DNA from: an uncultured Roseburia sp.
GTDB taxonomy: Bacteria; Bacillota; Clostridia; Lachnospirales; Lachnospiraceae
Assembly (NCBI GenBank): GCA_900539115.1
Contig: UQAQ01000001.1
Coordinates: 21,368-85,367 of the forward strand
DNA: 64,000 nucleotides
Direction of reading: 5' to 3'
Shown here: positions 972 to 64,000 of the stretch, in pieces
Position numbering within the stretch: position 1 is the stretch's first letter
Layout of the letters: every line of letters begins with the position of its first letter
Notes under the pieces: model-generated
What the model was told of the DNA's origin: nothing
Seen by the model: only the letters and a program-made list of their open reading frames with translations
Database searches by the model: none
Position numbers and translations under genes: made by a program

Positions 972-2408
972 ATGAAAAAAGTATTGTTTGTAGCATCCGA
1001 ATGTGTACCATTTATCAAAACAGGAGGTTTGGCTGATGTAGTTGGATCGCTTCCAAAGTATTTTGATAAAAATGAATTTGATGTACGTGTTATGATACCG
1101 AAGTATGTTTCGATTCCGGAAGAATACAAAAATCAGATGGAGTTTGTCACACATTTTTATTTGGAACTTGCTTGGAGAAAACAATATGTTGGTATTTTTC
1201 AGATGCAATACCAAGGGGTTACATTTTATTTTCTTGATAACGAATTTTATTTTAGCGGAAATCGTCCATATGGAGAGATTTATCAGGACATTGAGAAATT
1301 TGCGTTCTTCAGTAAAGCAGCATTGTCTGCCCTTCCGGTTATCGGTTTTCGCCCGGATATCATCCATTGTCATGACTGGCAGACCGGTTTGATTCCGGTA
1401 TATTTGAAAGATTCGTTCCAGCAGGGAGAATTCTTCCGCAGAATTAAGTCAATCATGACGATACATAATTTGAAATTCCAGGGAGTCTGGGATAAGAAAA
1501 CAGTCATGGATACGACGGGACTGGATGCGTATTATTTTACACCGGACAAATTGGAAGCCTATGGAGATGCCAATTATCTCAAAGGCGGACTTGTTTATGC
1601 AGACCAGATCACGACAGTAAGTGATACGTATGCAGAAGAGATCAAGACACCATTTTATGGAGAAAAACTGGATGGTCTGATGAATGCCCGTTCTGCGTGC
1701 TTAACAGGAATTGTCAATGGGCTTGATTATGATGAGTATAATCCGGCGACGGATCCGATGATCGAGGCACATTATGATGCGAGAACATTCCGCAAGGAAA
1801 AGATTAAAAATAAACGCGCTTTACAAAAAGAACTGGGGCTTGCACAGGATGACAAGAAATTTATGATCGGTATTGTTTCCCGTCTGACAGACCAGAAGGG
1901 GTTTGATCTGATCGACTATGTGATTGAGGAAATCTGTGCCGAGGATACACAGCTTGTGGTACTGGGAACCGGAGAAGAAAAATATGAGCATCTGTTCCGC
2001 CATTTTGCATGGAAATATCCGGAACGAGTTTCGGCAAACATTTTCTATTCCAATGAGCGTTCGCATAAGATTTATGCTTCCTGCGATGCCTTTTTGATGC
2101 CGTCCCTGTTTGAACCATGCGGTTTGAGCCAGTTGATGAGTCTTCGTTATGGTACTGTTCCGATCGTACGTGAGACCGGCGGTTTGAAAGATACGGTAGA
2201 ACCATACAATGAATATGAGAGCAAGGGAACCGGTTTCTCATTTGCCAATTACAACGCACATGAGATGCTCAATACGATCCGTTATGCGAAGCATATTTAT
2301 TTTGACCGCAAACGTGACTGGAATAAGATTATAGATCGTGGAATGGCGATGGATTTCTCCTGGGCAAATTCTGCGAAGAAATATCAGGATCTGTATAATC
2401 GTATGTAG
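972..2408 (+). CDS. glgA: Glycogen (starch) synthase, ADP-glucose type
   Basis: The N-terminus MKKVLFVASECVPFIKTGGLADVVGSLP is the GT5 KTGGL signature, and the length (~478 aa) fits GlgA. GGAGG lies upstream of the ATG at 972; the track ORF begins at 960. Confidence 0.9.
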   Translation: MKKVLFVASECVPFIKTGGLADVVGSLPKYFDKNEFDVRVMIPKYVSIPEEYKNQMEFVTHFYLELAWRKQYVGIFQMQYQGVTFYFLDNEFYFSGNRPYGEIYQDIEKFAFFSKAALSALPVIGFRPDIIHCHDWQTGLIPVYLKDSFQQGEFFRRIKSIMTIHNLKFQGVWDKKTVMDTTGLDAYYFTPDKLEAYGDANYLKGGLVYADQITTVSDTYAEEIKTPFYGEKLDGLMNARSACLTGIVNGLDYDEYNPATDPMIEAHYDARTFRKEKIKNKRALQKELGLAQDDKKFMIGIVSRLTDQKGFDLIDYVIEEICAEDTQLVVLGTGEEKYEHLFRHFAWKYPERVSANIFYSNERSHKIYASCDAFLMPSLFEPCGLSQLMSLRYGTVPIVRETGGLKDTVEPYNEYESKGTGFSFANYNAHEMLNTIRYAKHIYFDRKRDWNKIIDRGMAMDFSWANSAKKYQDLYNRM

Positions 2409-2432
2409 AGGATACAGATAGAAGAGTAAAAT

Positions 2433-2466
2433 AAGGGTACCTTATCTAGTGTGATGAGGTACCCTT
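2433..2466. terminator. Bidirectional rho-independent terminator between convergent glgA and csoR
   Basis: A perfect 10-bp inverted repeat (aagggtacct / aggtaccctt) with a 14-nt loop. It has an A-run on the left and a T-run on the right. Confidence 0.6.
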
Positions 2467-2484
2467 GTCATGACACATGTTTTC

Positions 2485-2784
2485 TTATTTTATCATTTTT
2501 TGTAAGATCGACAGAAGTTCTTCGACTTTTTCATCGTCCCCCTGACGGATGCCATCCACCACACAACTTTCGATGTGCGTGCTGAGCAGCTCCCTGTTAA
2601 ACGCAGTCAGTGCCGCAGAAGCTGCGGATGACTGTACCAGAATATCCATACAATACGCATCGTCCTCCAACATCCCGCGCAGTCCGCGAATCTGCCCTTC
2701 AATGCGGTTCAGGCGGTGAATCAGTTTCTTCTTTTCCTCATCCGAACGATATTTTTTATGACAACAGCAACTCTTATCCGACAT
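2485..2784 (-). CDS. csoR: CsoR-family copper-sensing transcriptional repressor
   Basis: It is 99 aa long. The LNRIEGQIRGL...YCMDILVQSSAASAAL...ESC core matches the CsoR/RcnR DUF156 fold with the Cys/His metal ligands. It is divergent from copZ–copA. Confidence 0.8.
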   Translation of the reverse strand: MSDKSCCCHKKYRSDEEKKKLIHRLNRIEGQIRGLRGMLEDDAYCMDILVQSSAASAALTAFNRELLSTHIESCVVDGIRQGDDEKVEELLSILQKMIK

Positions 2785-2876
2785 AATAACCCTCCACTTG
2801 TAGTTGAAACATTTTATCTATAGTATACCCATAATTTTTTTAGAAGTAAAGAGTTATTATTTTTGTTGTAATGCTA

Positions 2877-3017
2877 TTTTTCCCCATGGGATTCCTTCCC
2901 GCACCGGGATTTTGAACACCGTCAGTTTCCAGAGGACGTATTGTGTCCTCGGAAACTGCTACGTGTGTTCACTAAGCGCAAGCGGTCCCAAGCGGAAAGG
3001 AATCCCATGGGGAAAAA
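2877..3017. repeat. ~140-bp palindromic structured element: 20-bp perfect terminal inverted repeat (25 bp with 1 mismatch) enclosing an internal near-perfect hairpin
   Basis: ttttccccatgggattcctt at 2877–2896 is the exact reverse complement of aaggaatcccatggggaaaa at 2998–3017. An internal hairpin cagtttccagaggac / gtcctcggaaactg lies at 2923–2958. The overlapping 77-aa track ORF 2804..3037 has no RBS and is probably not coding. Confidence 0.5.
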
Positions 3018-52589: not shown

Positions 52590-52600
52590 TAGCAGGAATG

Positions 52601-52636
52601 GGGCGCTGCGTGCAGCGCCCTGTAATGGTTTTGGAA
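52601..52636 (+). terminator. Rho-independent terminator closing the glycopolymer locus
   Basis: gggcgctgc / gcagcgccc is a perfect GC-rich 9-bp stem, followed by tgtaatggtttt. Confidence 0.6.
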
Positions 52637-52690: not shown

Positions 52691-52750
52691 GGTATTACGG
52701 GGAGTATTGCAGTGAGTGTTGCAGGGAGTATTGCGGGAAGTATTGCGGGG
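52691..52750. repeat. Five tandem copies of a GC-rich 12-nt unit (aGTATTGCgGGg)
   Basis: The five units are ggtattacgggg, agtattgcagtg, agtgttgcaggg, agtattgcggga and agtattgcgggg. They are contiguous and sit in an otherwise AT-rich non-coding region. Confidence 0.7.
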
Positions 52751-52802
52751 TCAGGGGCGAAATCATTTATTGGAGCGAAAATTGACTTGAAAAATGGAAA
52801 AT

Positions 52803-53035
52803 TCGTTTTAGGTCAAGGAAAAAAGAACTTGTTTTTGGTCTAGAAAGAGTTTTTTAAAGGTGGACCATAAAGCAACTTGTAAGAGTTTGGTCTAGCAAAG
52901 GATACTGGCTTTTCAGGTCAAATACAAGATGCAAAACGTATGACTCAAAGCAGGAAAGAGTCATGTGGGTCAAAAGAGTAGTATAAATTTGTTGGTCTAA
53001 TCACTTGAAAAATTAAATTAGGTCAAAAAGAAAGG
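52803..53035 (+). repeat. Iteron-like array: nine direct repeats of T-rich–GGTC(A/T)A–A-rich with ~26-bp periodicity
   Basis: GGTCAA or GGTCTA occurs at 52811, 52837, 52889, 52916, 52968, 52994 and 53021. Degenerate copies (GGACCA, GACTCA) lie at 52862 and 52942. The spacings are 26, 25, 27, 27, 26, 26, 26 and 27 bp, all in the same orientation. The array ends 13 nt before the Lar-like start. Confidence 0.65.
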
Positions 53036-53044
53036 AATAAGAAT

Positions 53045-53269
53045 ATGAATATCGAAGAAATGTTAGAGATCAGTGACTGTCCGCTGTGTGAGGGCGGCGC
53101 ATTGTTGGAAGAAGAATGTGGCTGTGGTTATTATGTGATGTGTCTGGAGTGCGGATGTCATTCGGTGACGATTGATTTCCACTCCGAGGATGAGCGGCTG
53201 GAGGCAGCGAAAAGAGCAGTGACACTCTGGAATACCGGCAAGGTGATTTCCAGCAGTCCGGGAGAATGA
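53045..53269 (+). CDS. Lar-family (restriction-alleviation-like) zinc-ribbon protein
   Basis: A 74-aa protein with four Cys pairs (CPLCEGG..CGCG..CLECGC) and the C-terminal A-x-x-x-WNT motif (AVTLWNTGK) typical of Lar/PF14354. Confidence 0.45.
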   Translation: MNIEEMLEISDCPLCEGGALLEEECGCGYYVMCLECGCHSVTIDFHSEDERLEAAKRAVTLWNTGKVISSSPGE

Positions 53270-53270
53270 T

Positions 53271-54059
53271 ATGGCAAGGGTAGATGGTCATATTCATATT
53301 GAGCGGGGAGATTACTCGCTAGAATGGATCCAACAATTTGTAGACAAGGCAGTAGAGACGCAGATGGATGAAATCCGCTTGCTCGAACACTGCTACATAT
53401 TTGAAGAATTTAGACCAATGTATCATTCTGTATGTGCACACAGTAAGTTTGTGGATGAGTGGTTTCAAAGAAAAGCCGGTAAGCATAAGCTGCCAGAGTA
53501 TTTTAAACTGATTGAAAAAGTAAGAAATCAAAAATATCCTGTTACGATAAAGTTTGGACTTGAAATATGTTACTTTAAAGAGCAGGAGGCATTTATTGAA
53601 AAAATCACGAAAAACAAAGGCTTTGATTTCTTGTTAGGGAGCGTTCATTTTGTGGATGATTTCGCCTTTGATCATAAGCCGGAACACTGGATTGGAATCG
53701 ATGTCGATGCGATATACCGCACCTACTTTGAAGATTCCATATTGCTGGCAAAAAGCAAATTGTTTGATGGAATTGGTCATCCGGATGCCATAAAATTGTT
53801 TGGTCACCGGCCTTCTTTTTCCCTTTCCGGTTATTATGAAAGATTAGCAAAGGAACTTTCAAATAGTAATATGTATGCAGATCAAAACAGCGGGGCAGCC
53901 AGAAGATGTCCCGGAACTTCTTCTTTGGGAATGGAGCGCGAATTACTTCGGGCAATGAAGAAAAATTATGTGAAAATTATTACTTCATCGGATGCTCATT
54001 GTCCGGAAGACGTGGGCGACAAAATTCGGGACTTGGAAAATTGTGTTGTAAATGCTTAG
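53271..54059 (+). CDS. PHP-family phosphoesterase (HisJ/HisK histidinol-phosphatase-like)
   Basis: It has the DGHIHIERG N-terminal metal-binding motif, and GSVHF and HPD motifs. It is 262 aa long. Its start lies 1 nt after the Lar-like stop. Confidence 0.6.
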   Translation: MARVDGHIHIERGDYSLEWIQQFVDKAVETQMDEIRLLEHCYIFEEFRPMYHSVCAHSKFVDEWFQRKAGKHKLPEYFKLIEKVRNQKYPVTIKFGLEICYFKEQEAFIEKITKNKGFDFLLGSVHFVDDFAFDHKPEHWIGIDVDAIYRTYFEDSILLAKSKLFDGIGHPDAIKLFGHRPSFSLSGYYERLAKELSNSNMYADQNSGAARRCPGTSSLGMERELLRAMKKNYVKIITSSDAHCPEDVGDKIRDLENCVVNA

Positions 54060-54091
54060 AAATGGAATTGGTTATGGAGGAGAGGAAATAT

Positions 54092-54514
54092 ATGGTGAGT
54101 AAAAATATGGAAAAAGATATTTGGAAAATTATGTATGACAAGGCAAGAGAAGTTCAAAATGAGAGAGAGATTTCTCCGTTCATTGAAGCAGGAGGTGTTG
54201 CGGCAGCGATATTAACAAAAAGTGGAAATATATATGTTGGTGTATGTATAGATACCGCGAGCACGTTAGGAATGTGTGCAGAAAGAAATGCGATTGCAAA
54301 TATGATTACAAATGGAGAAAGTAAAATAGATAAAATGGTTGCGGTGGTTGAAGACGGCAGTGTGGGAGCACCATGTGGAGCATGCCGGGAATATATGATG
54401 CAGCTGGATAAAGAAAGTGGTGATATTGAGATTTTAATGGATTATGAAACAAGAAAAACGGTGAGATTAATTGAATTAATACCGGAGTGGTGGGGGCACA
54501 GCAGATTCAAATAA
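54092..54514 (+). CDS. Cytidine/deoxycytidylate deaminase-fold protein (blasticidin-S-deaminase-like)
   Basis: It has the zinc ligand motifs CAERNA and PCGACRE. The start was moved to the ATG at 54092, behind GGAGGAGAGG; the track ORF starts at 53906 inside the PHP gene. Confidence 0.6.
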   Translation: MVSKNMEKDIWKIMYDKAREVQNEREISPFIEAGGVAAAILTKSGNIYVGVCIDTASTLGMCAERNAIANMITNGESKIDKMVAVVEDGSVGAPCGACREYMMQLDKESGDIEILMDYETRKTVRLIELIPEWWGHSRFK

Positions 54515-54545
54515 TCTTCCGGTCTGAGAAGAAAAGGAGTAAAAT

Positions 54546-54878
54546 ATGGAATATTGTGGAATTATAGCATTGGTTTTGCTGCTTTGCTATTCAGCATATC
54601 CGGGAAAGGTAAAGCGGCTGGAAGCAAAAGTAAAACGATTGGAGAAAAAGCAGAAAGGAGATAATTATATGTCGCAGTTGATTGATGATCTTGTAGGTGA
54701 ACAATGTACCATTAAGTCGGAAGCTATTCTGAATTTCGCAGGAAAAACAGAATTATCCTGCACGATTTTGGATGCAGATGATGAATGGATGAAGATCTGT
54801 TATACGGATAAAAAGAATAAGCAGGTAACGAAACTTTTACGAATTGAAGCGATTGACGAAATAGAAATCGAAGAGTGA
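54546..54878 (+). CDS. Small hypothetical protein (N-terminal TM + KVKRLEAKVKRLEKK basic repeat + acidic C-terminus)
   Basis: The ORF is only 110 aa; an alternative start gives a 70-aa product. No family was recognised. Confidence 0.3.
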   Translation: MEYCGIIALVLLLCYSAYPGKVKRLEAKVKRLEKKQKGDNYMSQLIDDLVGEQCTIKSEAILNFAGKTELSCTILDADDEWMKICYTDKKNKQVTKLLRIEAIDEIEIEE

Positions 54879-55027
54879 GTTCTATTTTTCGGGAACAGTA
54901 CTTCGACTCGGAAATCAGAATGTGATATTTGACTTGGGTAATATTTTGGCACATTGTCATATGGGCATATATAGTTTGATTGAATTGAAAAAAGAAGTGT
55001 AAATCGAAATTTGTGGAGGACCTTATC

Positions 55028-55642
55028 ATGAAAGTCATTTTTGTCAGGCATGGAAAAGATGACAATAAATACCGTGGCGGATGGAGTAAAATAGACTTAA
55101 TCCCAGAAGGGATTGAACAAGCAAAGCAATTGGCCAATCATATGAAAGAAAACAGTCAGGAATATCACATTCAGCGGATTATTGCAAGTGATTTACCAAG
55201 AACCATATCCACTGCTCGTTTTATATCTGCTGAATTAGGCTTACCAATCCAACAAGAGTATCGCCTGAGAGAAATGAATAATGGCGATTTAGCAGGTATG
55301 CTTAATGAGGAAGCTCTTAAGCAGTATCCTGGCCTCTTTTTTAGCTCATTAAAAATGGATGAAGCATACCCAAATGGAGAAAGCCCCAGTGATTTCTTTG
55401 CGCGAATTAGAAGCTGGTTTGATGAATTTGTTGAAAAAAGCAAAAATACGAATGATAATATTTTGATAGTAACTCACGGCGGAGTAATCAATATTATTTA
55501 CCATCTGGTAAACGGAATAGAATGGAACAACCAAAGTCATATTTATAAGGTAGCGAATTGCAGTGTCCATGTTTTAGATATGGACACAATGAAATTTGAA
55601 GTTGAAAACAAAATCGATTTCTTGCTATCCGCAGTAAACTAA
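55028..55642 (+). CDS. Histidine phosphatase superfamily protein (phosphoglycerate-mutase-like)
   Basis: The N-terminus carries the catalytic RHG motif (VIFVRHGK), and TH (VTHGGVI) lies downstream. The start was moved to the ATG at 55028, behind GGAGGA. Confidence 0.7.
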   Translation: MKVIFVRHGKDDNKYRGGWSKIDLIPEGIEQAKQLANHMKENSQEYHIQRIIASDLPRTISTARFISAELGLPIQQEYRLREMNNGDLAGMLNEEALKQYPGLFFSSLKMDEAYPNGESPSDFFARIRSWFDEFVEKSKNTNDNILIVTHGGVINIIYHLVNGIEWNNQSHIYKVANCSVHVLDMDTMKFEVENKIDFLLSAVN

Positions 55643-55693
55643 AAAATTCAAGTTTGGAGAATTGAGAAAATCGGGATTTGATGGTGAGAAGAT

Positions 55694-56782
55694 ATGTCTT
55701 TAAATATGCGAAAGCATTACATTGATAATTTAAGATGGATTATACTTTTGATACTTATACCATATCATGCAGCAATGGCATGGAATTCATGGGGCGAACC
55801 GAATTATATTTACTTTGAAAATAATCGAGTAATAAGTAGTATTATTGTATTTTTTGGTCCCTATTTTATGCCACTGTTATTTGTGTTGTCAGGTGTAAGT
55901 ACGAAATTTGCATTGCGAAAGAGAACAAATAAGGAGTATTTGATTGAGAGAGTAAAAAGGTTACTTATCCCCCTTTTGTTTGGAACAATAGTTTTAATGC
56001 CGATTATGACATATATGGCAGATAAATTTAATTGTTCTTATAATGGTGGTTTGCTAAAACATTATGCTATATTTTTTACAAAATATACGGATTTGATAGG
56101 GGCAGATGGTGGCTTTTCGTTTGGACAGTTTTGGTTTTTGTTATATCTGCTGGTTATTTCGGTTGTAGGTATTTGTGTAATTACACTGTTGAATAAGATA
56201 ATTGTTAAGTCGAAGCAAACGATTCCGTTCTGGATGGTTTTAGTATTGGGTTTACCATTACCACTGCTAAGTGAACTGCTTTCTATAGGTGGGAAAAGCT
56301 TTGTGGAATATACATATCTATTTTTGATTGGTTATTATGTATTTGCAGATGAAGAAGTAGTTGATAAAGCAGAGAAGAATAATTTATTATTGTTTGGTGT
56401 TGGACTAATAGCGACCATTTTGAATGTTTATCTTTTTGTTTGGTCAGATGTGGAATTGACATTTTTAAACATTATTACAAAATATGTTTCAGAGTGGATT
56501 ATGGTAATTGCTTTAATAGGCTTAGCAAAAAGATATTTAAATTTTGGAGGTAAAACTTCAGATTATATGAATAAAAGGTCATTTTTATTTTATATCTATC
56601 ATTTTATCTGGGTTGTTCTGTTTCAGTACATATTATATGGTTTTGTTGGAAATAAAACCGTTGTATTGTTTATTGGCTCGGTGCTAATGTCTTATTTGAT
56701 GACATCTATTTGTTGCGAGATTAGTATCAGAGTACCTGGTTTGTGTTTTCTGACAGGAACAAAATATACTGCAAATAAGTGA
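55694..56782 (+). CDS. Acyltransferase family 3 membrane protein (O-acyltransferase)
   Basis: It has ~10 TM helices. The N-terminal motif YIDNLRWIILLILIPYHAAM is typical of the AT3 family. It is 362 aa long and very AT-rich. Confidence 0.7.
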   Translation: MSLNMRKHYIDNLRWIILLILIPYHAAMAWNSWGEPNYIYFENNRVISSIIVFFGPYFMPLLFVLSGVSTKFALRKRTNKEYLIERVKRLLIPLLFGTIVLMPIMTYMADKFNCSYNGGLLKHYAIFFTKYTDLIGADGGFSFGQFWFLLYLLVISVVGICVITLLNKIIVKSKQTIPFWMVLVLGLPLPLLSELLSIGGKSFVEYTYLFLIGYYVFADEEVVDKAEKNNLLLFGVGLIATILNVYLFVWSDVELTFLNIITKYVSEWIMVIALIGLAKRYLNFGGKTSDYMNKRSFLFYIYHFIWVVLFQYILYGFVGNKTVVLFIGSVLMSYLMTSICCEISIRVPGLCFLTGTKYTANK

Positions 56783-56898
56783 TTGAACAGACCGTGAAAT
56801 TCCAGTTTGTATGACTCGCAAACAATTTAATAATCATTATACACAGCACTTTAGCCAAAGGTTAAGGTGCTATTTTTTACCACAAAAGGAGGATTTGA

Positions 56899-57237
56899 AT
56901 GTCATATAAATTAAAACTTGTCTGCACGATTACATCCGCAGGAAAAACATCCTATACCAGTAAAAAATTGCGGAAAAATGATTGGTATAAGTATGAGGTT
57001 CAGGCATATCGTATCGTGGATGGGAAAAAAGTCGTTTTTGGACGTTCTTTACAGCTTCATGCGGCGACGAAGGGCAGCAAAAAATATGCAAATCCAGTGG
57101 CTGTACGCATTGCAGGAAGCAAAAAACGCACATTGAAAGTGGGAAAAATCATAACCAAGAAGCCCGGACAAGCTACCGTTTATGTGGTTACGCAAAATGG
57201 TGTGATGGCTAAAATAAAGGTGAAGGTGAGGAAATAG
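56899..57237 (+). pseudogene. Isolated bacterial Ig-like (Big_2) domain fragment; probable gene remnant
   Basis: The 112-aa ORF ends in a Big_2-like segment (KRTLKVGKIITKKPGQATVYVVTQNGVMAKIKVKV). It has no signal peptide or partner domains, and there are ~120 nt of non-coding sequence on each side. Confidence 0.3.
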
Positions 57238-57377
57238 ATAATAATTTTTTAGAAAATATAGTGACTAGGTGCAGGTTTTCTGCACCTTTTTGTTTTTTAA
57301 ACCGACCAAATGTGATACTATTTTATCTAATAGTTGTAGTACTTAATTTCAAGGCTTTGGAAGAAAGGAATAACCCC

Positions 57378-57908
57378 ATGGATACGAAACTTGTGATACA
57401 AGCGAAAAAGCATGACAAAGAGGCCTTTGTGAAACTGATTGAGGATAATCAAGCAAGTATGTATAAAGCCGCCATTGCCATTTTGCAAAATGACGAGGAT
57501 GCTGCGGACGCGATACAGGAAACGATTCTTATCTGCTGGGAAAAGATTGGTTCTCTGCGACACGCCGGATATTTTAAAACGTGGCTGATGCGCATTTTAA
57601 TTCATCAATGTTATGCGATTTATAATCAAAAGAAAAAAATGATTACAGCGGAAAAATTTCCGGATATCGAGGATCAATCTGAAGGATACGGAGAGATCGA
57701 GTGGCAGGAAATGTTACGTTATTTGAATAAAAAGCAGCGGATTGTTGTGGAACTTTATTATGGGCAGCAGTTTAAGGTGCGGGAAATTGCGGAGGCACTG
57801 CAGATTGGCCAAAGTGCAGTAAAAAGCAGGCTGCAGTCGGCAAGGAAAGCACTGGAAAAATATTATGATATCGGGAAAGAAACGTCGGCAGGTGTGGACG
57901 ATTTATAA
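57378..57908 (+). CDS. ECF-type RNA polymerase sigma factor (sigma-70 regions 2 and 4)
   Basis: A 176-aa protein with region 2 (FVKLIEDNQASMYKAAIAIL) and the region 4 HTH (VREIAEALQIGQSAVKSRLQSARKAL). The start was moved to the ATG at 57378, behind GAAAGGA. Confidence 0.8.
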   Translation: MDTKLVIQAKKHDKEAFVKLIEDNQASMYKAAIAILQNDEDAADAIQETILICWEKIGSLRHAGYFKTWLMRILIHQCYAIYNQKKKMITAEKFPDIEDQSEGYGEIEWQEMLRYLNKKQRIVVELYYGQQFKVREIAEALQIGQSAVKSRLQSARKALEKYYDIGKETSAGVDDL

Positions 57909-57924
57909 AATGGAGGGATTCATT

Positions 57925-58941
57925 ATGGATGCATATAAAAAATGGTTTGATGGGATTCAGAGAGACGATGAAGTGCCGGAAGTGGTAAAAAACGTTGTCG
58001 GGGAGACCTTGCAGTATCTGCCGGAAGTGCCACAAAAAATGCATAAGAAAAATGTTTGGAAAAGAGTGGCTGTTGCGGCAACCGTGCTTGTCATAATAGG
58101 TGGAGGTGTGTTGGCGGTGAATCCGTCCTTGGCGGCAAAACTTCCGGTGATTGGAAGCATCTTTCAGCAGGTAGGGAAAGAGGCGGTTTACTCCGGCGAA
58201 TATACGGATTCAAAGAAGATCATACCGGAAAAAACGGGCAGTTTAAGTGCGGAGAGCCAGGGGATTAAACTGACGGCATCCGAAGTTTACTGCGATGGAT
58301 TTTCGGTATATGTGACGATGCAGATGCAGGGCGCGGATATGGATTTTTCAAAAGAAGGGAAACGGATCTGTGTGAAAGCCCGGTACGGTTTCGACCAGCC
58401 AATGACGCGGGAAGATTCGGATATTCTGATTGATGGAAAATGTGTTGATAAGCATACTTTTATTGGCATGATGAAGTTTGATAAAACGGATGTTATTAAA
58501 AAAGATGGGACATTACAGATCCGGATTTTGACAATTTACAGGCAGGAAGAATCGGTTTCCGGTTTGTGGGATTTTGAAATCCCATACACGGTTTATGAAG
58601 AGGGAAGCCGGGAGATTGCGGTCAATAGAAAATTAAGCAGTTATTTGACGATAAAAAATGTATTTATATCGCCATACCAGATTGTGGTATTTACAAAAGA
58701 GACTGGGGGCGTGCACAGCCAGATTGCGCTGTTTGATCAAAATGGAAAGAAGATTTCTTTTGAAGAAATCGGGGACAAAGAAGGACGATGGGAGCGGAAA
58801 TTGTATGCAAGGAATGGACGCGTGATAACGAAACTGTATGGTTATGTTACGACGGAAGATAGTATTGCCTTGTATAAGGCGAAAACGAGAAAAGAGGCAA
58901 AAAGGTTGTCTACGTATCAGTTTTCCGTGGATGTTTTATAA
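57925..58941 (+). CDS. Putative anti-sigma factor: short cytoplasmic N-terminus, one TM, ~250-aa extracytoplasmic domain
   Basis: It starts 14 nt after the sigma stop, behind GGAGGG. The TM helix is VAVAATVLVIIGGGVLAV. The topology is typical of ECF anti-sigma factors. Confidence 0.5.
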   Translation: MDAYKKWFDGIQRDDEVPEVVKNVVGETLQYLPEVPQKMHKKNVWKRVAVAATVLVIIGGGVLAVNPSLAAKLPVIGSIFQQVGKEAVYSGEYTDSKKIIPEKTGSLSAESQGIKLTASEVYCDGFSVYVTMQMQGADMDFSKEGKRICVKARYGFDQPMTREDSDILIDGKCVDKHTFIGMMKFDKTDVIKKDGTLQIRILTIYRQEESVSGLWDFEIPYTVYEEGSREIAVNRKLSSYLTIKNVFISPYQIVVFTKETGGVHSQIALFDQNGKKISFEEIGDKEGRWERKLYARNGRVITKLYGYVTTEDSIALYKAKTRKEAKRLSTYQFSVDVL

Positions 58942-58952
58942 GGAGGAAAAAG

Positions 58953-60464
58953 ATGAAGAAAAAAATAGGCATGGTAGTTTTTGTGCTCATAATTATAAAT
59001 GTTCTAGCTGTTATTTTATTTACGATGCATAAAGAGACTACAAAAGTAGAAAAAACAGATACTGCAAGTAAGCAGGAAATGGTAAAAAATGAGGGCAAAG
59101 CATATGCAAGTCAATATCAGCTGCAAGTATCGCTGGATACTCAAAATAAAGTCCTTTCCGGAACCGTTTGTGCAACACTTAAAAATGCAACAGACGAGGA
59201 TTTAAAAAAGATTTGTGTGCGGAACTGGGCGGCAGCCATATTAAAAGGGAAAAAGTTTAAAACAGAGATCAGTTCGGCAAAAATTGGGAAAGAAAATTTG
59301 CAGATTGATAAAAAAGAGGACGCGTCTATTGTCTATTTATCTGCTGCAAACCGAATAATAGCGCCGGCTCGCAGTAATGCAAAAGTGGAAATTTCATTCC
59401 GAACGGAGATCCCAAAACAGAAAAATCGTTTTGGTTATGTTCTTTTTGATGGACACGAAATGTATCAACTTTCATTTTGCTTTCCAAGCATCTCTTTATA
59501 CCAAAACGGACAATGGAATGAAAATCCATATATGGGGGACAACGATGAAACGTATGTCAATGAGGCAGCAGATTATGATGTTACATTTTTGCATCCGAAA
59601 AACTATACCGTTGCGGCTGCCGGGACGGAGCATTCTATGCAAGACGGAACGAGGATTACCGGCAAAAATCTGAGAGAATTTGCAGCGGTTGTGTCGGATG
59701 ACTTTTGTCGTCTGGATGCCAATGAGGGGAAAACCACCATTTCCATTCTGGCTCCTGATTATAAGAAAAATCAGAAGTATTACAAATATTCTCTGCAGCT
59801 TGCCAAAGAGGCGGTCCGTGTTTTTTCGGAAAAAATAGGAGAGTACCCATTTACGGAATTGAAAATTGTGCATTGTTTCTTTGATGGCGCAATGGAATAT
59901 CCGGGGCTTTGCATGATCGGCATGCCGGATGTGAAAGAATTCCGCAATATTGATAAAAATTCTTTTGGAAAATTGGAATCACATGTGCCGCATGAAATCG
60001 CCCACCAGTGGTTTTATGCGGCAATCGGCAACGATTCTTATAAGGAACCGTGGCTCGACGAAGGCTTTAGTGAGTTTTGCGAAGATATTTTATTTCCCTA
60101 TTTTGCTAATAAAAAACTGCAGAAAACGTTGTGGGGAAATAAATACAATTCCCGTAAAGACATGGATAAATGGTTCCGGAAAATCGTTATTCCTCAGTCC
60201 ATGCGGACCAAACCGATCAATCGGAAAGTAAGTGATTATCAGGAAACATCGGATGAATATTCGACCTGTGTTTATGAGGGTGGCAAACTATTTTTGTATG
60301 AATTGTGGAAGGCGATGGGCGATAAAACATTTTTTGAAATGCTGCAAAAATATTATCAGATGTATCAGTTCCGGATTGCGACGACAGAGGATTTTTTAAT
60401 CATGGTTCGGGCAGTTGGAAAGGATGAGAAAGTGGAGCAGATTATTGAGCGGTATGTGGAGTAA
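58953..60464 (+). CDS. Membrane-anchored M1-family zinc metallopeptidase (gluzincin)
   Basis: HEIAHQWFY...WLDEGFSEF is the HExxH-x18-E motif of aminopeptidase-N-like enzymes. There is an N-terminal signal-anchor. It is 503 aa long. Confidence 0.7.
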   Translation: MKKKIGMVVFVLIIINVLAVILFTMHKETTKVEKTDTASKQEMVKNEGKAYASQYQLQVSLDTQNKVLSGTVCATLKNATDEDLKKICVRNWAAAILKGKKFKTEISSAKIGKENLQIDKKEDASIVYLSAANRIIAPARSNAKVEISFRTEIPKQKNRFGYVLFDGHEMYQLSFCFPSISLYQNGQWNENPYMGDNDETYVNEAADYDVTFLHPKNYTVAAAGTEHSMQDGTRITGKNLREFAAVVSDDFCRLDANEGKTTISILAPDYKKNQKYYKYSLQLAKEAVRVFSEKIGEYPFTELKIVHCFFDGAMEYPGLCMIGMPDVKEFRNIDKNSFGKLESHVPHEIAHQWFYAAIGNDSYKEPWLDEGFSEFCEDILFPYFANKKLQKTLWGNKYNSRKDMDKWFRKIVIPQSMRTKPINRKVSDYQETSDEYSTCVYEGGKLFLYELWKAMGDKTFFEMLQKYYQMYQFRIATTEDFLIMVRAVGKDEKVEQIIERYVE

Positions 60465-60521
60465 ATGCTGATTGCAGAACAGGAAATTGTGTGATATTCT
60501 TGCTTGAAAAAGGAGAAAATC

Positions 60522-61442
60522 ATGAAGAAACAATTGGAATTAATCGAAGAGTATTTATATTATGGGAGAAAGCAGCGAAAATTAGATGAAAAAACGATCC
60601 GCGCGTATCGCATTGATTTGAAGCAGTTTTTAGAGTTTAACGGACAGGAAGAATTGGTGATGTCAAGAGAGGCAATCCGGAAATATATCCTGCATTTGCA
60701 TGATGTTTATAAGCAAAAGACAGTAAAGCGGAAGATTGCAAGTTTGAAAGCATTTTACTCGTATTTAGAGGAAGAAGAGATTATAGAAGACAGCCCAATG
60801 CGAAAGGTGCGGACGGAATTTCGTGAGGAGAAAGTTTTGCCACGTACGATTCCTTATTCTACTTTGGAAACACTGCTCAGCTATATGTATTCTTTAAAAT
60901 TACAGACAAAAAATACGGAAAGCAGAACAAAGCTGTTAAATCGCGATATTGCGGTGGTTGAAACACTTTTTGCAACGGGAATACGGATTTCGGAACTATG
61001 CAATTTACCGCAGAAAAATATTGATCTGGAGCAAGGAATATTTTGTATAAAGGGCAAGGGAAACAAGGAGCGGTATCTTCAAATAGGAACCGTTCAAGTA
61101 ATAAAGCAATTGCAGGAATATAAAAATCAATGGAAGGATGAACTGAGCCAGACAGAGTTTTTCTTCCTCAATCGTTATGGGGAGCGATATTCAGAACAAT
61201 CAGCCCGTCGTATGGTCAGACGCTATGCAGAGCACGCAATGATTGATCTTCATGTTACACCCCATATGTTTCGCCATGCATTTGCAACACTGCTTTTAGA
61301 GGAAGAAGTGGACATTCGTTTTATCCAAAAAATGTTAGGCCACGCTTCCATTACGACAACGCAGATTTATGCGGAAGTGGCGTCAAAAAAGCAGATGGAA
61401 ATATTAAGGATGAAGCATCCGAGAAATCGTATGAATATATAG
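60522..61442 (+). CDS. Tyrosine site-specific recombinase (XerC/XerD / phage-integrase family)
   Basis: The C-terminal catalytic motifs HMFRHAFATLLLEEEVDIRFIQKMLGHASITTTQIYAEV (the R..H-R-H..Y set) are present. The start was moved to the ATG at 60522, behind AGGAGA; the track ORF starts at TTG 60504. Confidence 0.85.
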   Translation: MKKQLELIEEYLYYGRKQRKLDEKTIRAYRIDLKQFLEFNGQEELVMSREAIRKYILHLHDVYKQKTVKRKIASLKAFYSYLEEEEIIEDSPMRKVRTEFREEKVLPRTIPYSTLETLLSYMYSLKLQTKNTESRTKLLNRDIAVVETLFATGIRISELCNLPQKNIDLEQGIFCIKGKGNKERYLQIGTVQVIKQLQEYKNQWKDELSQTEFFFLNRYGERYSEQSARRMVRRYAEHAMIDLHVTPHMFRHAFATLLLEEEVDIRFIQKMLGHASITTTQIYAEVASKKQMEILRMKHPRNRMNI

Positions 61443-61618
61443 GAGGGGGGAGTGATTGAAAGGATTGTTAAAAAATCAAAAACAATTTGTATAGTTACTA
61501 ATAACTTTTAATTATCAGTACCACATTCCCAAGTATCTTTCTCGTGCTTTTTTCCTTGTAATTTACCAATGATTTTTCGACAATATTTGGTAGAATATAC
61601 GGAAAGGAGGAAGATAGC

Positions 61619-62536
61619 ATGAGAAAAAAATTATGTTTGCTTGTTATGTGTATGGCCGTTTCTTTTGTGATTGCTGGGTGTGGAAATTCTTCATCAGATA
61701 AATCCGATACGAAAACATCAGAAGAAGGAAAAAACGAAAAAACTTCCAATAAATCTCAGGAAGAGGATATCCATGTAAAAGCAGTAAAACAGGGAAGCCC
61801 GAAAGCTTATCCCAATATTAAATATGGTGATGCCTTTGGTGAATTCTTTGATGAGGCAAACTGGCGGTATTTCAAAGCCAAAAAGGGACAGGACATCGTG
61901 GAATTTACAGGATATTGTACGTACAAAGAATCCCGGGTAAAGGCGCGCCTTCAGTTTGTTGTGGATATGGACAACGGCTCTTTTACACAGGGGGCATTGA
62001 GCTTTAATGATGTACCACAGGAGGATACCATCACAAGTGTTATGATTCTAAAAGCATTTGAGGATTATGCGGAGAACCATAATGTCGATGAAGAGGATGT
62101 GGATAAAAATTCATTTGAATCGGGAACGGTCACGCAGTTTGATAATTCAGAGGAGACTTCGACACCGGAACCAGAAGTGACGCCGGAACCGGAGCCTACC
62201 CCGGAAGAAGAGGTGGAAGATTCTTATGATTATTACGAGGATGAAGAGGATTCAGAAGATAATACGGATTATTACATTTTGCCAAATTCAGATACGAAAA
62301 AAGTGACAAAGGCAGATCTGAAATCATTGACAAAAGAACAGTGCCGTATTGCCCGAAATGAAATTTATGCACGACACGGCAGACGCTTTAATGATAAGGA
62401 ACTGCAGGATTATTTTGATAAACAATCCTGGTATTTTGGTTCTGTAGAGGCGGATGAATTTAGTGAAAGTGTATTGAATCCAATCGAAAAGGCAAATGCG
62501 AAGTTTATTCTTAAATATGAGAATAAATTAAAATAA
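61619..62536 (+). CDS. Lipoprotein with low-complexity acidic linker and C-terminal YARHG domain
   Basis: It has a lipobox (VIAGC), a TPEPE repeat and the YARHG motif (EIYARHGRRF). It is 305 aa long. Confidence 0.7.
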   Translation: MRKKLCLLVMCMAVSFVIAGCGNSSSDKSDTKTSEEGKNEKTSNKSQEEDIHVKAVKQGSPKAYPNIKYGDAFGEFFDEANWRYFKAKKGQDIVEFTGYCTYKESRVKARLQFVVDMDNGSFTQGALSFNDVPQEDTITSVMILKAFEDYAENHNVDEEDVDKNSFESGTVTQFDNSEETSTPEPEVTPEPEPTPEEEVEDSYDYYEDEEDSEDNTDYYILPNSDTKKVTKADLKSLTKEQCRIARNEIYARHGRRFNDKELQDYFDKQSWYFGSVEADEFSESVLNPIEKANAKFILKYENKLK

Positions 62537-62552
62537 AACGGAGGAAGTTTTT

Positions 62553-63584
62553 ATGCAGACAAATGAACAAAATAAACGTTATGTGGCGGATGAGTACCTT
62601 GGAGAGGCTACATTGTTCCGGTCATTTCTTGGCCAGCGATTAGGCTTAATGAATACCAAGGTGGCATCCTGGATCGTATTTGGAGAAGATCGATTAAAGA
62701 TTGGAACAATGCCAAATACATATCAAAAGAAAAGAGAAATCTGTTATCGGGACATTGCCTCGGTTAGTATAAAACGGTATATTAATTTATATGGAATTAT
62801 AATTATTGCGCTGTGTGCGATAGCGGCATTTTTTACAGCAGGAGTAGGACTGATCTGTGCTGCGGTTGTTTTATGGTCAGCACTTGGCTGCAAATTGGAG
62901 ATAAAAACGAGAGATGGAAATACCTACAATTACTGGAGTGTAAGTTCTCCTTCCCATTATTCGGATTTTATGAATAAACTTCAGACAATAATTTCTTGCG
63001 CACAGCAGGATCAAGAATGCTTGTCAATGGAATCAGAGACAGCGGATGTTGCTTCCCGGCTTTTTATTCAAAGAGATATGAATATGGGAAGAGGCATAAA
63101 AGAAAGCTGGGATATTATGCTTGGCTTGTTGTGCTCGGGAAAAGAAATTGATGAGATGTTTCTCCAGCTGGAGGAGAAAATCCAAGGCCAAAAAGGACTG
63201 GCTACCATGCGTTCCAATGAAAAAGTATATCAGGAAATCCAGGGCAAGGTAGCACCTTATCTGCAGCAGGATGAAGTGATTCTGTTCTGTGCAAAAACAG
63301 GACTGACATCTGCTTCGAAAAACTATATGTTATTGACCAATCGGCGAATTGCATTTTTCTATGGAAAGAATTTTTATGGTGAATATTATGAAAATATTTA
63401 CCGTTTGATGCATCTCTCGCAAGGCGCATATTGGTTTATTAATGGGCCGTTAGATCAAACGGAAGAATCATTGAACGGTGTATATTTGGATAGAGAACAA
63501 ACAGGAATTGTTCTTGCAATCATCTGTAAATATTATGAGGAGAGAAGAGCACCGGGACATAAGATTGCTATTTGCGGTCAGTAA
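62553..63584 (+). CDS. Hypothetical membrane protein with bacterial PH-like (bPH) segments
   Basis: It has a central 2-TM region. YMLLTNRRIAFFYGK resembles bPH_2/YdbT-type motifs. It is 343 aa long. Confidence 0.4.
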   Translation: MQTNEQNKRYVADEYLGEATLFRSFLGQRLGLMNTKVASWIVFGEDRLKIGTMPNTYQKKREICYRDIASVSIKRYINLYGIIIIALCAIAAFFTAGVGLICAAVVLWSALGCKLEIKTRDGNTYNYWSVSSPSHYSDFMNKLQTIISCAQQDQECLSMESETADVASRLFIQRDMNMGRGIKESWDIMLGLLCSGKEIDEMFLQLEEKIQGQKGLATMRSNEKVYQEIQGKVAPYLQQDEVILFCAKTGLTSASKNYMLLTNRRIAFFYGKNFYGEYYENIYRLMHLSQGAYWFINGPLDQTEESLNGVYLDREQTGIVLAIICKYYEERRAPGHKIAICGQ

Positions 63585-63598
63585 AGAGGAGGTATTTT

Positions 63599-64000
63599 GT
63601 GAAAAAAATAATTGCTTTAATGTTGGTAACCGTGTTATGCATTGTCAATTTGACAGCATGTGGTTCCTCTGAGGAATCAAAGCCGTCAGTCTATTCTGTG
63701 GGAGATGTACTTAACTTTTCTAACAGTAATGGTGAAGAGTATAGTGTCTGCATTACAGATTGGGGAACGAGTGTGGATGGAAGTATATTGGATATTTTTT
63801 CATTAAAAACAGTTACCTGGTTTCAATATGTGATCATGAATACCGGAGATGAAGAAGTTACGGTGTCGGATAATATTTTCAATATTTATGCGGATGATTA
63901 CAGTGTAGATACGGAATGGTCGGAAGAAGGTACTTTCCTAGAGACATTGGCTCCGGGTAAAAAAACATCCGGTAAAGTATATGCGGAAATGGATGCGGAT
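63599..64000 (+). CDS. Lipoprotein (DUF4352-like), 3'-truncated by the window end
   Basis: A GTG start lies behind AGGAGG. It has a signal peptide with a lipobox (NLTAC). The frame is open to the window end at position 64000. Confidence 0.5.
   Translation, partial: MKKIIALMLVTVLCIVNLTACGSSEESKPSVYSVGDVLNFSNSNGEEYSVCITDWGTSVDGSILDIFSLKTVTWFQYVIMNTGDEEVTVSDNIFNIYADDYSVDTEWSEEGTFLETLAPGKKTSGKVYAEMDAD

Follow-up and report, generated by a model that had tools for sequence, protein, structure and literature searches.

A recombinase-terminated patch of mixed genes in a gut Lachnospiraceae-like species as the probable junction of a megabase-scale chromosomal inversion

In a 64-kb stretch of DNA from a human-gut Lachnospiraceae-like species (the window), positions 53045-61442 form an 8.4-kb interval of assorted genes that opens with a gene for a Lar-family zinc-ribbon protein and closes with one for a tyrosine recombinase, and that an earlier note on the sequence had considered a possible integrated element. 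Comparison with other assemblies suggests that this interval is probably a composite, in which a run of chromosomal accessory genes behind a teichoic-acid-type (Tar) locus has been joined by an inversion of ~1.26 Mb to one portion of a decayed island that stems from an integrative and conjugative element (ICE). The interval is a new instance of known, ordinary genome plasticity. Both the earlier observation and its interpretation hold in part: a remnant with its recombinase does exist, but only at 55681-~61520 and cut by the inversion, whereas the left third of the interval is an unrelated chromosomal accessory run.

Two blocks that meet at a 13-nt sequence

Public assemblies were searched for the PHP phosphoesterase, YARHG, histidine-phosphatase, recombinase and sigma proteins, and the loci that encode them were aligned to the window by blastn. 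The left block, 53045-55667, carries the Lar-like gene and those for the PHP phosphoesterase, a deaminase, a protein of 110 amino acids (aa) and the histidine phosphatase, and it is contiguous behind the Tar locus in every assembly. The right block, 55681-~61520, carries an AT3 acyltransferase, a 112-aa fragment, an extracytoplasmic-function (ECF) sigma factor, an anti-sigma factor, an M1 peptidase and the recombinase. Nine loci match the window only to ~55711 and then continue into other genes; the alternatives found after the histidine phosphatase are a 154-aa open reading frame (ORF) and MGMT-like, GNAT, Fic, PLPC, LUD and AAA_14 genes. Five loci match the window only from 55668 and are preceded by GreA, LysS, an "SSB" ORF, HicA and HicB. 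The sole sequence common to the three junction types is the 13-mer AAATCGGGATTTG, at 55668-55680 of the window.

Both alternative junctions are present on a single contig of another genome of the species, GCA_037068395.1 (contig JBAMSM010000002.1, 2.36 Mb). There, the block running from the Tar locus to the histidine phosphatase occupies 1,530,082-1,550,696 in reversed orientation, while HicAB, the genes from AT3 to the recombinase, and YARHG occupy 275,817-296,734 in forward orientation. The two copies of the 13-mer in that genome lie ~1.26 Mb apart and are inverted with respect to each other, and an inversion of the intervening DNA would give precisely the gene order of the window. The window-type junction is itself present in six independent metagenome assemblies and therefore is no assembly artefact. 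In the sister lineage (L018, a GTDB species representative, 100% identical to L099) the histidine phosphatase is followed by GNAT and Fic genes, so that the order of the window is the derived one. Plus-strand GC skew is positive in all 1-kb bins of the window except 2001-3000, where it is slightly negative; all bins of both blocks are thus positive, and a positive skew on the coding strand of both fits a replichore-symmetric inversion around the terminus.

We propose that the interval arose from two unrelated chromosomal segments that a large inversion joined. The left segment, 53045-55667, would open a long series of small accessory genes, all on one strand, behind the Tar terminator, and this series ancestrally would have continued after the histidine phosphatase with the 154-aa ORF, the MGMT-like, GNAT and Fic genes and further genes. 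The other segment would have had the ancestral order lysS, ParB and SSB remnants, HicAB, cargo, recombinase, YARHG. An inversion of ~1.26 Mb, most likely spanning the replication terminus, would have crossed over in the 13-nt leader between HicB and AT3, leaving the HicAB end of the island on the other replichore and fusing the stretch from AT3 to the recombinase to the histidine-phosphatase gene. Gene content, the three junction types, their separation and orientation in the other genome, the homology of the island backbone and the architecture of the recombinase site are direct observations, and one single inversion would presumably connect the two arrangements.

In having breakpoints 1.26 Mb apart and in opposite orientation, with gene orientation kept relative to GC skew, this arrangement resembles known replichore-symmetric chromosomal inversions. 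It is unlike them in that the crossover falls in a 13-nt leader motif rather than in rRNA operons, insertion-sequence copies or prophages, and in that the reciprocal junction, HicB next to the 154-aa ORF, was not seen: an exact-match scan of metagenome contigs, a collection that has one contig of the species, did not find it. This absence weighs against the proposed history, as does the fact that 13 nt is very short for homologous recombination. With regard to the island itself, its left end is not definable, no att repeat was found between its two ends in L110, and its genes are present in every strain seen except L010, so that it behaves as a fixed chromosomal region of the species. Furthermore, in the few loci examined, the inverted-repeat-flanked segments that accompany relatives of the recombinase (see below) displayed no orientation polymorphism. 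Despite these points we consider the composite origin probable. Smaller-scale flipping was also looked for, and ~40 same-species loci gave no reverse-strand matches to the 52-64 kb part of the window.

The 13-mer was also considered as a specific att or recombinase site, which was ruled out when a degenerate scan of metagenomes found it recurring as a generic leader before unrelated genes. It forms a small AAATC/GATTT hairpin and, with GGAGG and an ATG behind it, precedes many unrelated metagenome genes (loci L129-L154), frequently at 7-10 nt downstream of a TATAAT box. Its appearance is that of a leader common to these genes, with a hairpin at the 5' end and a strong ribosome-binding site.

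Gene content, composition and boundaries

All substantial ORFs across 48.7-64 kb are on the + strand. The features of the interval and its edges are listed below by window coordinates and strand; the biochemical functions of the interval genes are predictions from sequence throughout.

52598-52623, +, intrinsic terminator closing the teichoic-acid-type (TarI/TarJ/TarF-L-like) operon (terminator scan)
52811-53026, +, array of seven GGTCWA motifs on a ~26-nt lattice, non-coding, between the Tar terminator and the Lar-like gene
53045-53269, +, Lar-family zinc-ribbon protein (Lar_restr_allev), 74 aa; PF14354, 58.9 bits
53271-54059, +, PHP phosphoesterase, HisJ-family, 262 aa; Pfam PHP
54092-54514, +, deaminase of the cytidine-deaminase (CDA) fold, 140 aa; PF00383
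54546-54878, +, 110-aa protein without a family in Pfam, NCBIfam, PHROGs or PADLOC
55028-55642, +, histidine-phosphatase superfamily protein, CobC/PspA-like, 204 aa; PF00300 (His_Phos_1), 144 bits
55668-55680, +, 13-mer, putative crossover point of the inversion (junction sequences)
55694-56782, +, AT3 membrane acyltransferase; Acyl_transf_3, PF01757, residues 8-336 of 362
56899-57237, +, orphan ORF p112, 112 aa, C-terminal remnant of a bigger protein
57378-57908, +, ECF-type sigma factor, 176 aa; Sigma70_r2 and r4_2, TIGR02937 above its cut-off
57925-58941, +, DUF4179 membrane protein, putative cognate anti-sigma factor, 338 aa; PF13786, 66.8 bits
58953-60464, +, Peptidase_M1 protein with an N-terminal hydrophobic segment, 503 aa; PF01433, 87 bits
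60522-61442, +, Xer-like tyrosine recombinase, 306 aa; Phage_integrase and N-terminal SAM-like domain
61468-61495, +, weak sigma-70-like promoter TTAAAA-16-TATAGT, facing the site that follows (promoter scan)
61496-61520, no strand, single core site TACTAATAA-CTTTTAA-TTATCAGTA, 9-nt inverted arms and 7-nt spacer
61606-61609, no strand, insertion point of an IS110-family element in other strains, empty in the window (blastn breakpoints)

Upstream of the interval lies a glycopolymer locus with GT2 enzymes, DUF6311, YfhO, a Glyphos_transf fusion, a TarI-like cytidylyltransferase, a TarJ-like dehydrogenase and a TarF/L-like polymerase (Pfam, NCBIfam), and downstream of the recombinase come a YARHG lipoprotein and more small genes (Pfam). 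The ORFs and most of the domain calls of the earlier note hold when compared with Pfam, as does its description of the gene content as mixed and heterogeneous. An exception is the Big2 label that it had given to p112, which could not be confirmed: the best Pfam match is an Fn3-like domain at E=0.029, and no Pfam family is matched at E<0.01. The same ORF is nevertheless a genuine orphan fragment, as had been suggested, since it corresponds to the C-terminal portion of a 527-aa ORF of L165; window positions 56908-57244 are 94-98% identical to the 3' part of that ORF in L165/L170, and in L012-L017 the N-terminus of p112 differs, with the break at 56940.

The GC content of the interval is 0.384, against a window mean of 0.426, which places it at the 5th percentile of 8.4-kb windows. 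Going from the left of the interval into it, GC falls from 0.44 to 0.39, so that the description of the patch as AT-richer than its flanks is correct on this side. On the other side it is not: the right flank (61443-64000, GC 0.385) is equally AT-rich, and the recombinase therefore marks no compositional boundary. The sole strong outlier in composition, and the most AT-rich one in the window, is AT3 (GC 0.309, GC3 0.27). Stretches of the glycan locus at 30-36 kb have comparably low GC, 0.36-0.39.

The true left-hand context of the interval is the terminator of the Tar-type operon at 52598-52623. The iteron-like array that had been seen to the left of the interval is real: seven of the 15 plus-strand GGTCWA copies of the window are packed into 216 nt, with a consensus of about TTTWGGTCWARAAAG. 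However, it cannot serve as the left boundary of an element, because every strain carries it, as does the sister lineage; among the fetched loci it was found in this species and that lineage only. It is probably a regulatory region upstream of the Lar-like gene, and could be a set of binding sites for a regulator. Between the terminator and the array, a 12-nt tandem repeat (GTATTGCGGGGA-like, five to six units) lies at 52692-52751, within a predicted ORF of 77-81 aa that is probably spurious, and this repeat region varies between lineages (L018, L019, L099). Right after the TarF/L-like stop (~52590), a hairpin-forming stretch of ~54 nt is found in L007, L098, L099, L018 and L019 and is absent from the window. 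The region upstream of the Lar-like gene was examined as a candidate for exceptional conservation, and this was rejected, as identity to the sister lineage rises gradually rightwards from 90% to 99%. Such a gradient looks like mosaic recombination rather than special constraint.

These data bear directly on the idea that 53045-61442 is one integrated element (a genomic island, a prophage remnant or an integrative mobilizable element) with the array at its left end and the integrase at its right. It would account for the location of the AT-richest 8.4 kb of the window (the lowest-GC segment of this length, 0.378, starts at 53401 and overlaps the interval), for the heterogeneity of the genes, for a recombinase of the mobile-element type, which indeed closes the interval on the right as had been claimed, and for the presence of a Lar family known from prophages (Pfam description). 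However, GCA_037068395.1, a genome of the same species, has the two parts 1.26 Mb from each other, and they occur independently in many assemblies; neither any strain nor the sister lineage has the left block detached from the Tar locus; the right flank has the same GC; and the array, being conserved everywhere, is no end. In the strain comparison the interval never relocates or drops out as one unit, its parts occurring separately. The earlier note had suggested a search for att repeats, and around 52.6 and 61.5 kb only short direct matches at chance level were found, with no credible flanking repeat; scans of the window gave no tRNA or tmRNA, and no Rfam match. Against plasmids, the whole interval gave a single 42-nt match. 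The latter is at 56852-56893, upstream of p112, and is 97.7% identical to a hypothetical-protein region of the Lachnospira eligens megaplasmid (NC_012780.1). A single element is thus scarcely tenable, and is already refuted by the positions of the loci in GCA_037068395.1, unless those assemblies are wrong. Descent from an integrated element holds for 55681-~61500 and fails for the interval as a whole, whose parts lie ~1.26 Mb from each other elsewhere. Nor is the gene order a conserved core of the genus, which would have spoken against any mobile origin: the order is not conserved.

The right block as part of a decayed island

We return to the composite reading, under which the right block would be the right-hand part of a decayed ICE-derived island, a suggestion based on the homology of the backbone. 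In the alternative arrangement HicA and HicB have 98-99% protein identity to those of islands ending in an 89%-identical recombinase, the HicAB DNA being 94-97% identical to L125, L126 and L155, and in L110 the "SSB" ORF consists of a piece of ParB fused to a piece of SSB. L155, which was obtained from the HicB look-up through a cluster representative, joins HicAB to NlpC/P60, MobC and relaxase genes. It overlaps a shorter island at 96% over 6.9 kb and, at 88%, L120, a contig on which relaxase and type IV coupling protein genes are followed by a 75%-identical recombinase. The backbone of this family of islands would read ParB-SSB-...-HicA-HicB-[cargo]-recombinase-site, with AT3, the gene fragment, the sigma/anti-sigma pair and the M1 peptidase as the cargo in the species studied here.

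Decayed ICE islands of gut Lachnospiraceae are therefore the closest parallel: they share HicAB and ParB/SSB remnants at 94-99% identity, a closing recombinase that is 75-89% identical, and variable cargo between HicB and the recombinase. In contrast to them, the region described here is split by the 1.26-Mb inversion, with the right part only in the window, and lacks relaxase, type IV secretion and coupling-protein genes, att repeats and a defined left end. Neither the window nor the loci with the alternative arrangement contain any conjugation or mobilisation genes, ParB/SSB fragments and HicAB being all that there is, and in L110 a search for att repeats shared by the island end next to lysS and the end next to the recombinase gave only short matches at chance level.

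Within the cargo, AT3 is strain-variable: it is absent from L012-L017 and L165/L170, which keep the sigma factor, anti-sigma factor and M1 peptidase. An apparent truncation of AT3 in L001 was rejected, being a scaffold gap of Ns. The anti-sigma gene always adjoins the sigma gene in the fetched loci, and the M1 peptidase travels with this pair and with the recombinase in all arrangements. In L010 (8020-9813, departing at window position 61432) the genes from the sigma factor to the recombinase are absent: only the last 10 nt of the recombinase gene remain, adjoined by a different IS110 element (428 aa) and unrelated genes (Peptidase_M64 and a 1557-aa ORF), while the core site downstream has been retained. 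An IS110 element of ~1.8 kb, encoding a 425-aa transposase, sits between the recombinase and YARHG at the same point in L002, L008, L012-L015 and L017. In the related islands that end in the 89%-identical recombinase, the cargo behind HicAB includes an AAA_15/AAA_21 ATPase together with a DUF4435 protein (L125, 4571-6789; L128, 4058-6277), a pair that we take to resemble a PARIS-like defence system.

Could part of this cargo have a common function in envelope stress? In Bacillus subtilis the sigV-rsiV-oatA operon combines a sigma factor, its anti-sigma factor and an acyltransferase, and by analogy AT3, the ECF sigma factor and the DUF4179 anti-sigma factor might form a lysozyme-resistance cassette carried by the island. 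The sigma factor scores 79.8 bits against the SigV model, the presumed anti-sigma factor bears DUF4179, and AT3 is located 0.6 kb upstream. That score is, however, far under the cut-off of 190, and a sequence search of the anti-sigma factor against RsiV structures gave no match, so that an RsiV-like identity was dropped. Two terminators and a gene fragment separate AT3 from the sigma gene (one of them, at 56845-56871, directly behind AT3 in the terminator scan), and the strains without AT3 retain the remainder. Finally, OatA has a C-terminal SGNH domain, for which there is no space in a protein of 362 residues whose residues 8-336 are filled by Acyl_transf_3. We consider such a cassette decidedly unlikely.

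The recombinase and its lone site

An alignment with its homologues shows no variation at any of the six catalytic residues of the recombinase (R155, K179, H248, R251, H274 and Y283). These homologues form a graded series from 99% to 61% identity, in unrelated places: one of 75% lies directly after MobC/NikA, relaxase and VirD4/TraG coupling-protein genes, one of 89% closes ParA/ParB-SSB-HicA-HicB-cargo islands, and one of 61% occupies a small islet flanked by spoVG and pth. Altogether, homologues of 61-97% identity were found in five different contexts and the neighbourhood is not conserved. The enzyme belongs to a clade associated with mobile islands and invertases, and is neither XerC nor XerD.

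The alternative would be a resident enzyme of the XerC/XerD type (or XerS/XerH-like) that resolves chromosome dimers, with the palindromic site 54 nt downstream of the gene as dif, a possibility that the earlier note, which called the recombinase XerD-like, had itself raised. XerC and XerD are its best family and PDB matches (XerD 1a0p being the best PDB match) and have the same domain architecture; every strain locus that extends far enough, L010 excepted, carries the gene, which is intact; and the adjacent short site with two inverted arms (9 nt, with a 7-nt spacer) resembles the layout of xerS and difSL. However, the scores fall far under the cut-offs and are about equal for the two families (TIGR02224, XerC, 231.5 vs 335.15; TIGR02225, XerD, 228.2 vs 329.6; PRK00283, 224.6 vs 279), synteny is not conserved, and homologues of 61-89% occur in unrelated contexts that include the ends of ICEs. 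The location also argues against a dif site, since there is no GC-skew switch in the 64 kb, the cumulative skew continuing to rise through 61496-61520, and the terminus would be ~0.6 Mb away if judged by the geometry of the inversion. Moreover, L010 has lost the gene yet keeps the site, and next to relatives of the recombinase, inverted pairs of the site enclose gene segments, a layout for inversion rather than for dif. A role as the resident Xer enzyme is therefore very improbable.

In the window this site is single. No second copy was detected in the window, allowing up to seven mismatches, or within 10 kb on either side in L110, and with only one site left no local rearrangement is to be expected: the recombinase is here attached to nothing that it could rearrange within the window. 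The promoter at 61468-61495, which faces the site, takes the place of the strong TTGAAA-17-TATAAT promoter of the relatives (alignment downstream of the recombinase and the sequence of L165).

Inverted-repeat-flanked cassettes beside relatives of the recombinase

Homologues of the recombinase with 61-97% identity adjoin segments of 2-5 kb. Downstream of the homologues, the conserved TTGAAA-17-TATAAT promoter faces a core site, nnnnGATAA-7 nt-TTATCnnnn. The loci L118-L120, L123 and L125-L127 have an exact inverted copy of this site at a distance of 3.7-4.7 kb, and in some cases a second pair nested with the first, while in L121 the inverted pairs are ~1.9 kb apart and upstream of the gene; overall, exact inverted pairs in the homologous loci are spaced by 1.8-4.7 kb. 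The segments are at 7967-11941 in L118, 7967-11789 in L119, 7925-12033 in L123, 11002-15751 in L125, 10538-14239 in L126, 5030-6930 in L121 and from 10149 onward in L165. They contain a large + strand ORF with signatures of STAND-type NTPases and TPR, in one case with an Mrr_cat nuclease domain, facing a - strand gene for an ATP-grasp, GT2, SHMT or DUF4062 protein. Proteins of the cassettes had no match in PADLOC.

Judging by its arrangement, the layout would be that of a gene-swapping invertase system, and this clade of recombinases may act as an invertase. Tyrosine-recombinase DNA invertases are known from Clostridioides difficile (RecV), Streptococcus pneumoniae (PsrA/CreX at the ivr locus) and the R64 shufflon (Rci) (PMC7096588, PMC5386303). 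The homologous loci are similar to these in having an Xer-like catalytic domain with the six residues kept, and a gene beside exact inverted copies of a core site that flank a segment behind a fixed promoter. They are unlike them in that the segments consist of whole genes (STAND/TPR NTPases vs ATP-grasp/GT2) and not of promoters or of hsdS or pilV fragments, and the window differs in having one site. No inversion polymorphism was observed in any of the few loci available. The STAND/TPR segments could be phase-variable, defence-like cassettes. Taking this further, one may imagine an Xer-like invertase clade, of which literature searches gave no description, that flips cassettes of 2-5 kb behind a fixed promoter in gut Clostridia and thereby selects either an Avs-like STAND/TPR NTPase or the gene facing it (ATP-grasp, GT2 and others). 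In the window, where the promoter and one cognate site stand in front of the YARHG operon and the recombinase is intact (as in all strain loci reaching it but L010), the cassette would have been lost, and the enzyme could still act in trans on sites far away, or there could be a docking point here for cassettes of this kind. We offer this idea tentatively, and regard it as rather doubtful.

The Lar-PHP-deaminase genes and their neighbours

The tight spacing of the first three genes of the left block, to which the earlier note had drawn attention, is as described: the gap from the Lar stop to the PHP start is 1 nt, and that from PHP to the deaminase 32 nt. As to the individual proteins, the Lar-like protein scores 58.9 bits against PF14354, well over the gathering cut-off of 28.6, and has a weak match to phrog_599 in PHROGs. 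The PHP protein falls just under the cut-off of the HisJ model TIGR01856 (89.5 vs 90.2), and its best PDB match in a sequence search is the histidinol phosphatase 2yxo. For the deaminase all NCBIfam CDA models were under cut-off, and the PDB matches are to CDA (1e-10) and to blasticidin-S deaminase (1e-6), so that a deaminase of the homotetrameric cytidine-deaminase/blasticidin-S-deaminase type may be predicted. The 110-aa protein combines a hydrophobic segment at its N-terminus with a charged repeat, KVKRLEAKVKRLEKK, and for the histidine phosphatase the NCBIfam models were also under cut-off. An identical histidine phosphatase is encoded in very different surroundings on a Hadza metagenome contig (L107, 10001-10615), with an NTP_transf_2/NTase_sub_bind pair on one side and a truncated integrase fragment on the other.

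By its small CxxC...CxxC zinc ribbon and its score above the family cut-off, the Lar-like protein resembles the restriction alleviation protein Lar of the Rac prophage. Its setting is different: here the gene is in a chromosomal, non-prophage context directly after the teichoic-acid locus, is translationally coupled to a PHP phosphoesterase, and has no close phage relative, its function being suggested by sequence only. No phage genes were found near it, and no match was obtained by tblastn in 50,697 phage genomes at E<=1e-3.

It had been suggested that the trio could be a nucleotide-modifying or anti-defence module, and more generally Lar, PHP and the deaminase, with or without the 110-aa protein and the histidine phosphatase, might be an operon acting on nucleotides or nucleic acids in anti-restriction, anti-defence or nucleotide modification. 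Besides the spacing, such an operon would fit the single upstream region with its conserved motif array, the prediction of no terminator until after AT3, the retention of the order in the species and the sister lineage, and the nature of the enzymes, which are phosphoesterases and a deaminase. PHP homologues of 66-83% identity were found in loci of 78 other species, 74 of which entered a clustering of neighbours within 4 kb, and no recurrent partner emerged: the biggest neighbour cluster comprised seven loci, the ORFs directly upstream of PHP are mutually unrelated across species, and in none of these 74 species does PHP accompany Lar or the deaminase. In a tblastn search with all window proteins, this species and its sister lineage were the only ones with Lar and the deaminase beside PHP. 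Even in the sister lineage (L099/L104/L106/L018) the order is interrupted twice: PHP and the deaminase are separated by an Exo_endo_phos gene (277 aa), and the 110-aa gene and the histidine phosphatase by a four-gene insertion (an AAA_21/SMC_N ATPase of 464 aa and ORFs of 225, 107 and 59 aa). The check for defence and anti-defence genes with PADLOC matched none of the 10 interval proteins at E<=1e-3, and PHROGs gave weak or generic matches only, including the weak one for Lar and a histidine-phosphatase family of no known function. Together with the absence of Lar from the phage genomes, this makes a dedicated nucleotide or anti-defence operon unlikely. In other Clostridia the PHP gene is a widely conserved stand-alone gene, and Lar-PHP-deaminase is not a conserved module, the tight spacing being real but lineage-specific. 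The four-gene insertion with the AAA_21/SMC_N ATPase in the sister lineage could be a defence-type cassette.

Implications

For annotation, a patch of AT-rich, mixed genes that ends in a recombinase may mimic an island and yet be the junction of a megabase inversion. Comparison between strains tells the two apart, which composition alone cannot do. Two arrangements of the chromosome of this gut species coexist in human populations. The adjacency of Lar, PHP and the deaminase provides no evidence for a shared anti-defence role. The most interesting lead lies outside the window, in the STAND-NTPase cassettes found beside relatives of the recombinase, which possibly represent phase-variable defence in Firmicutes.

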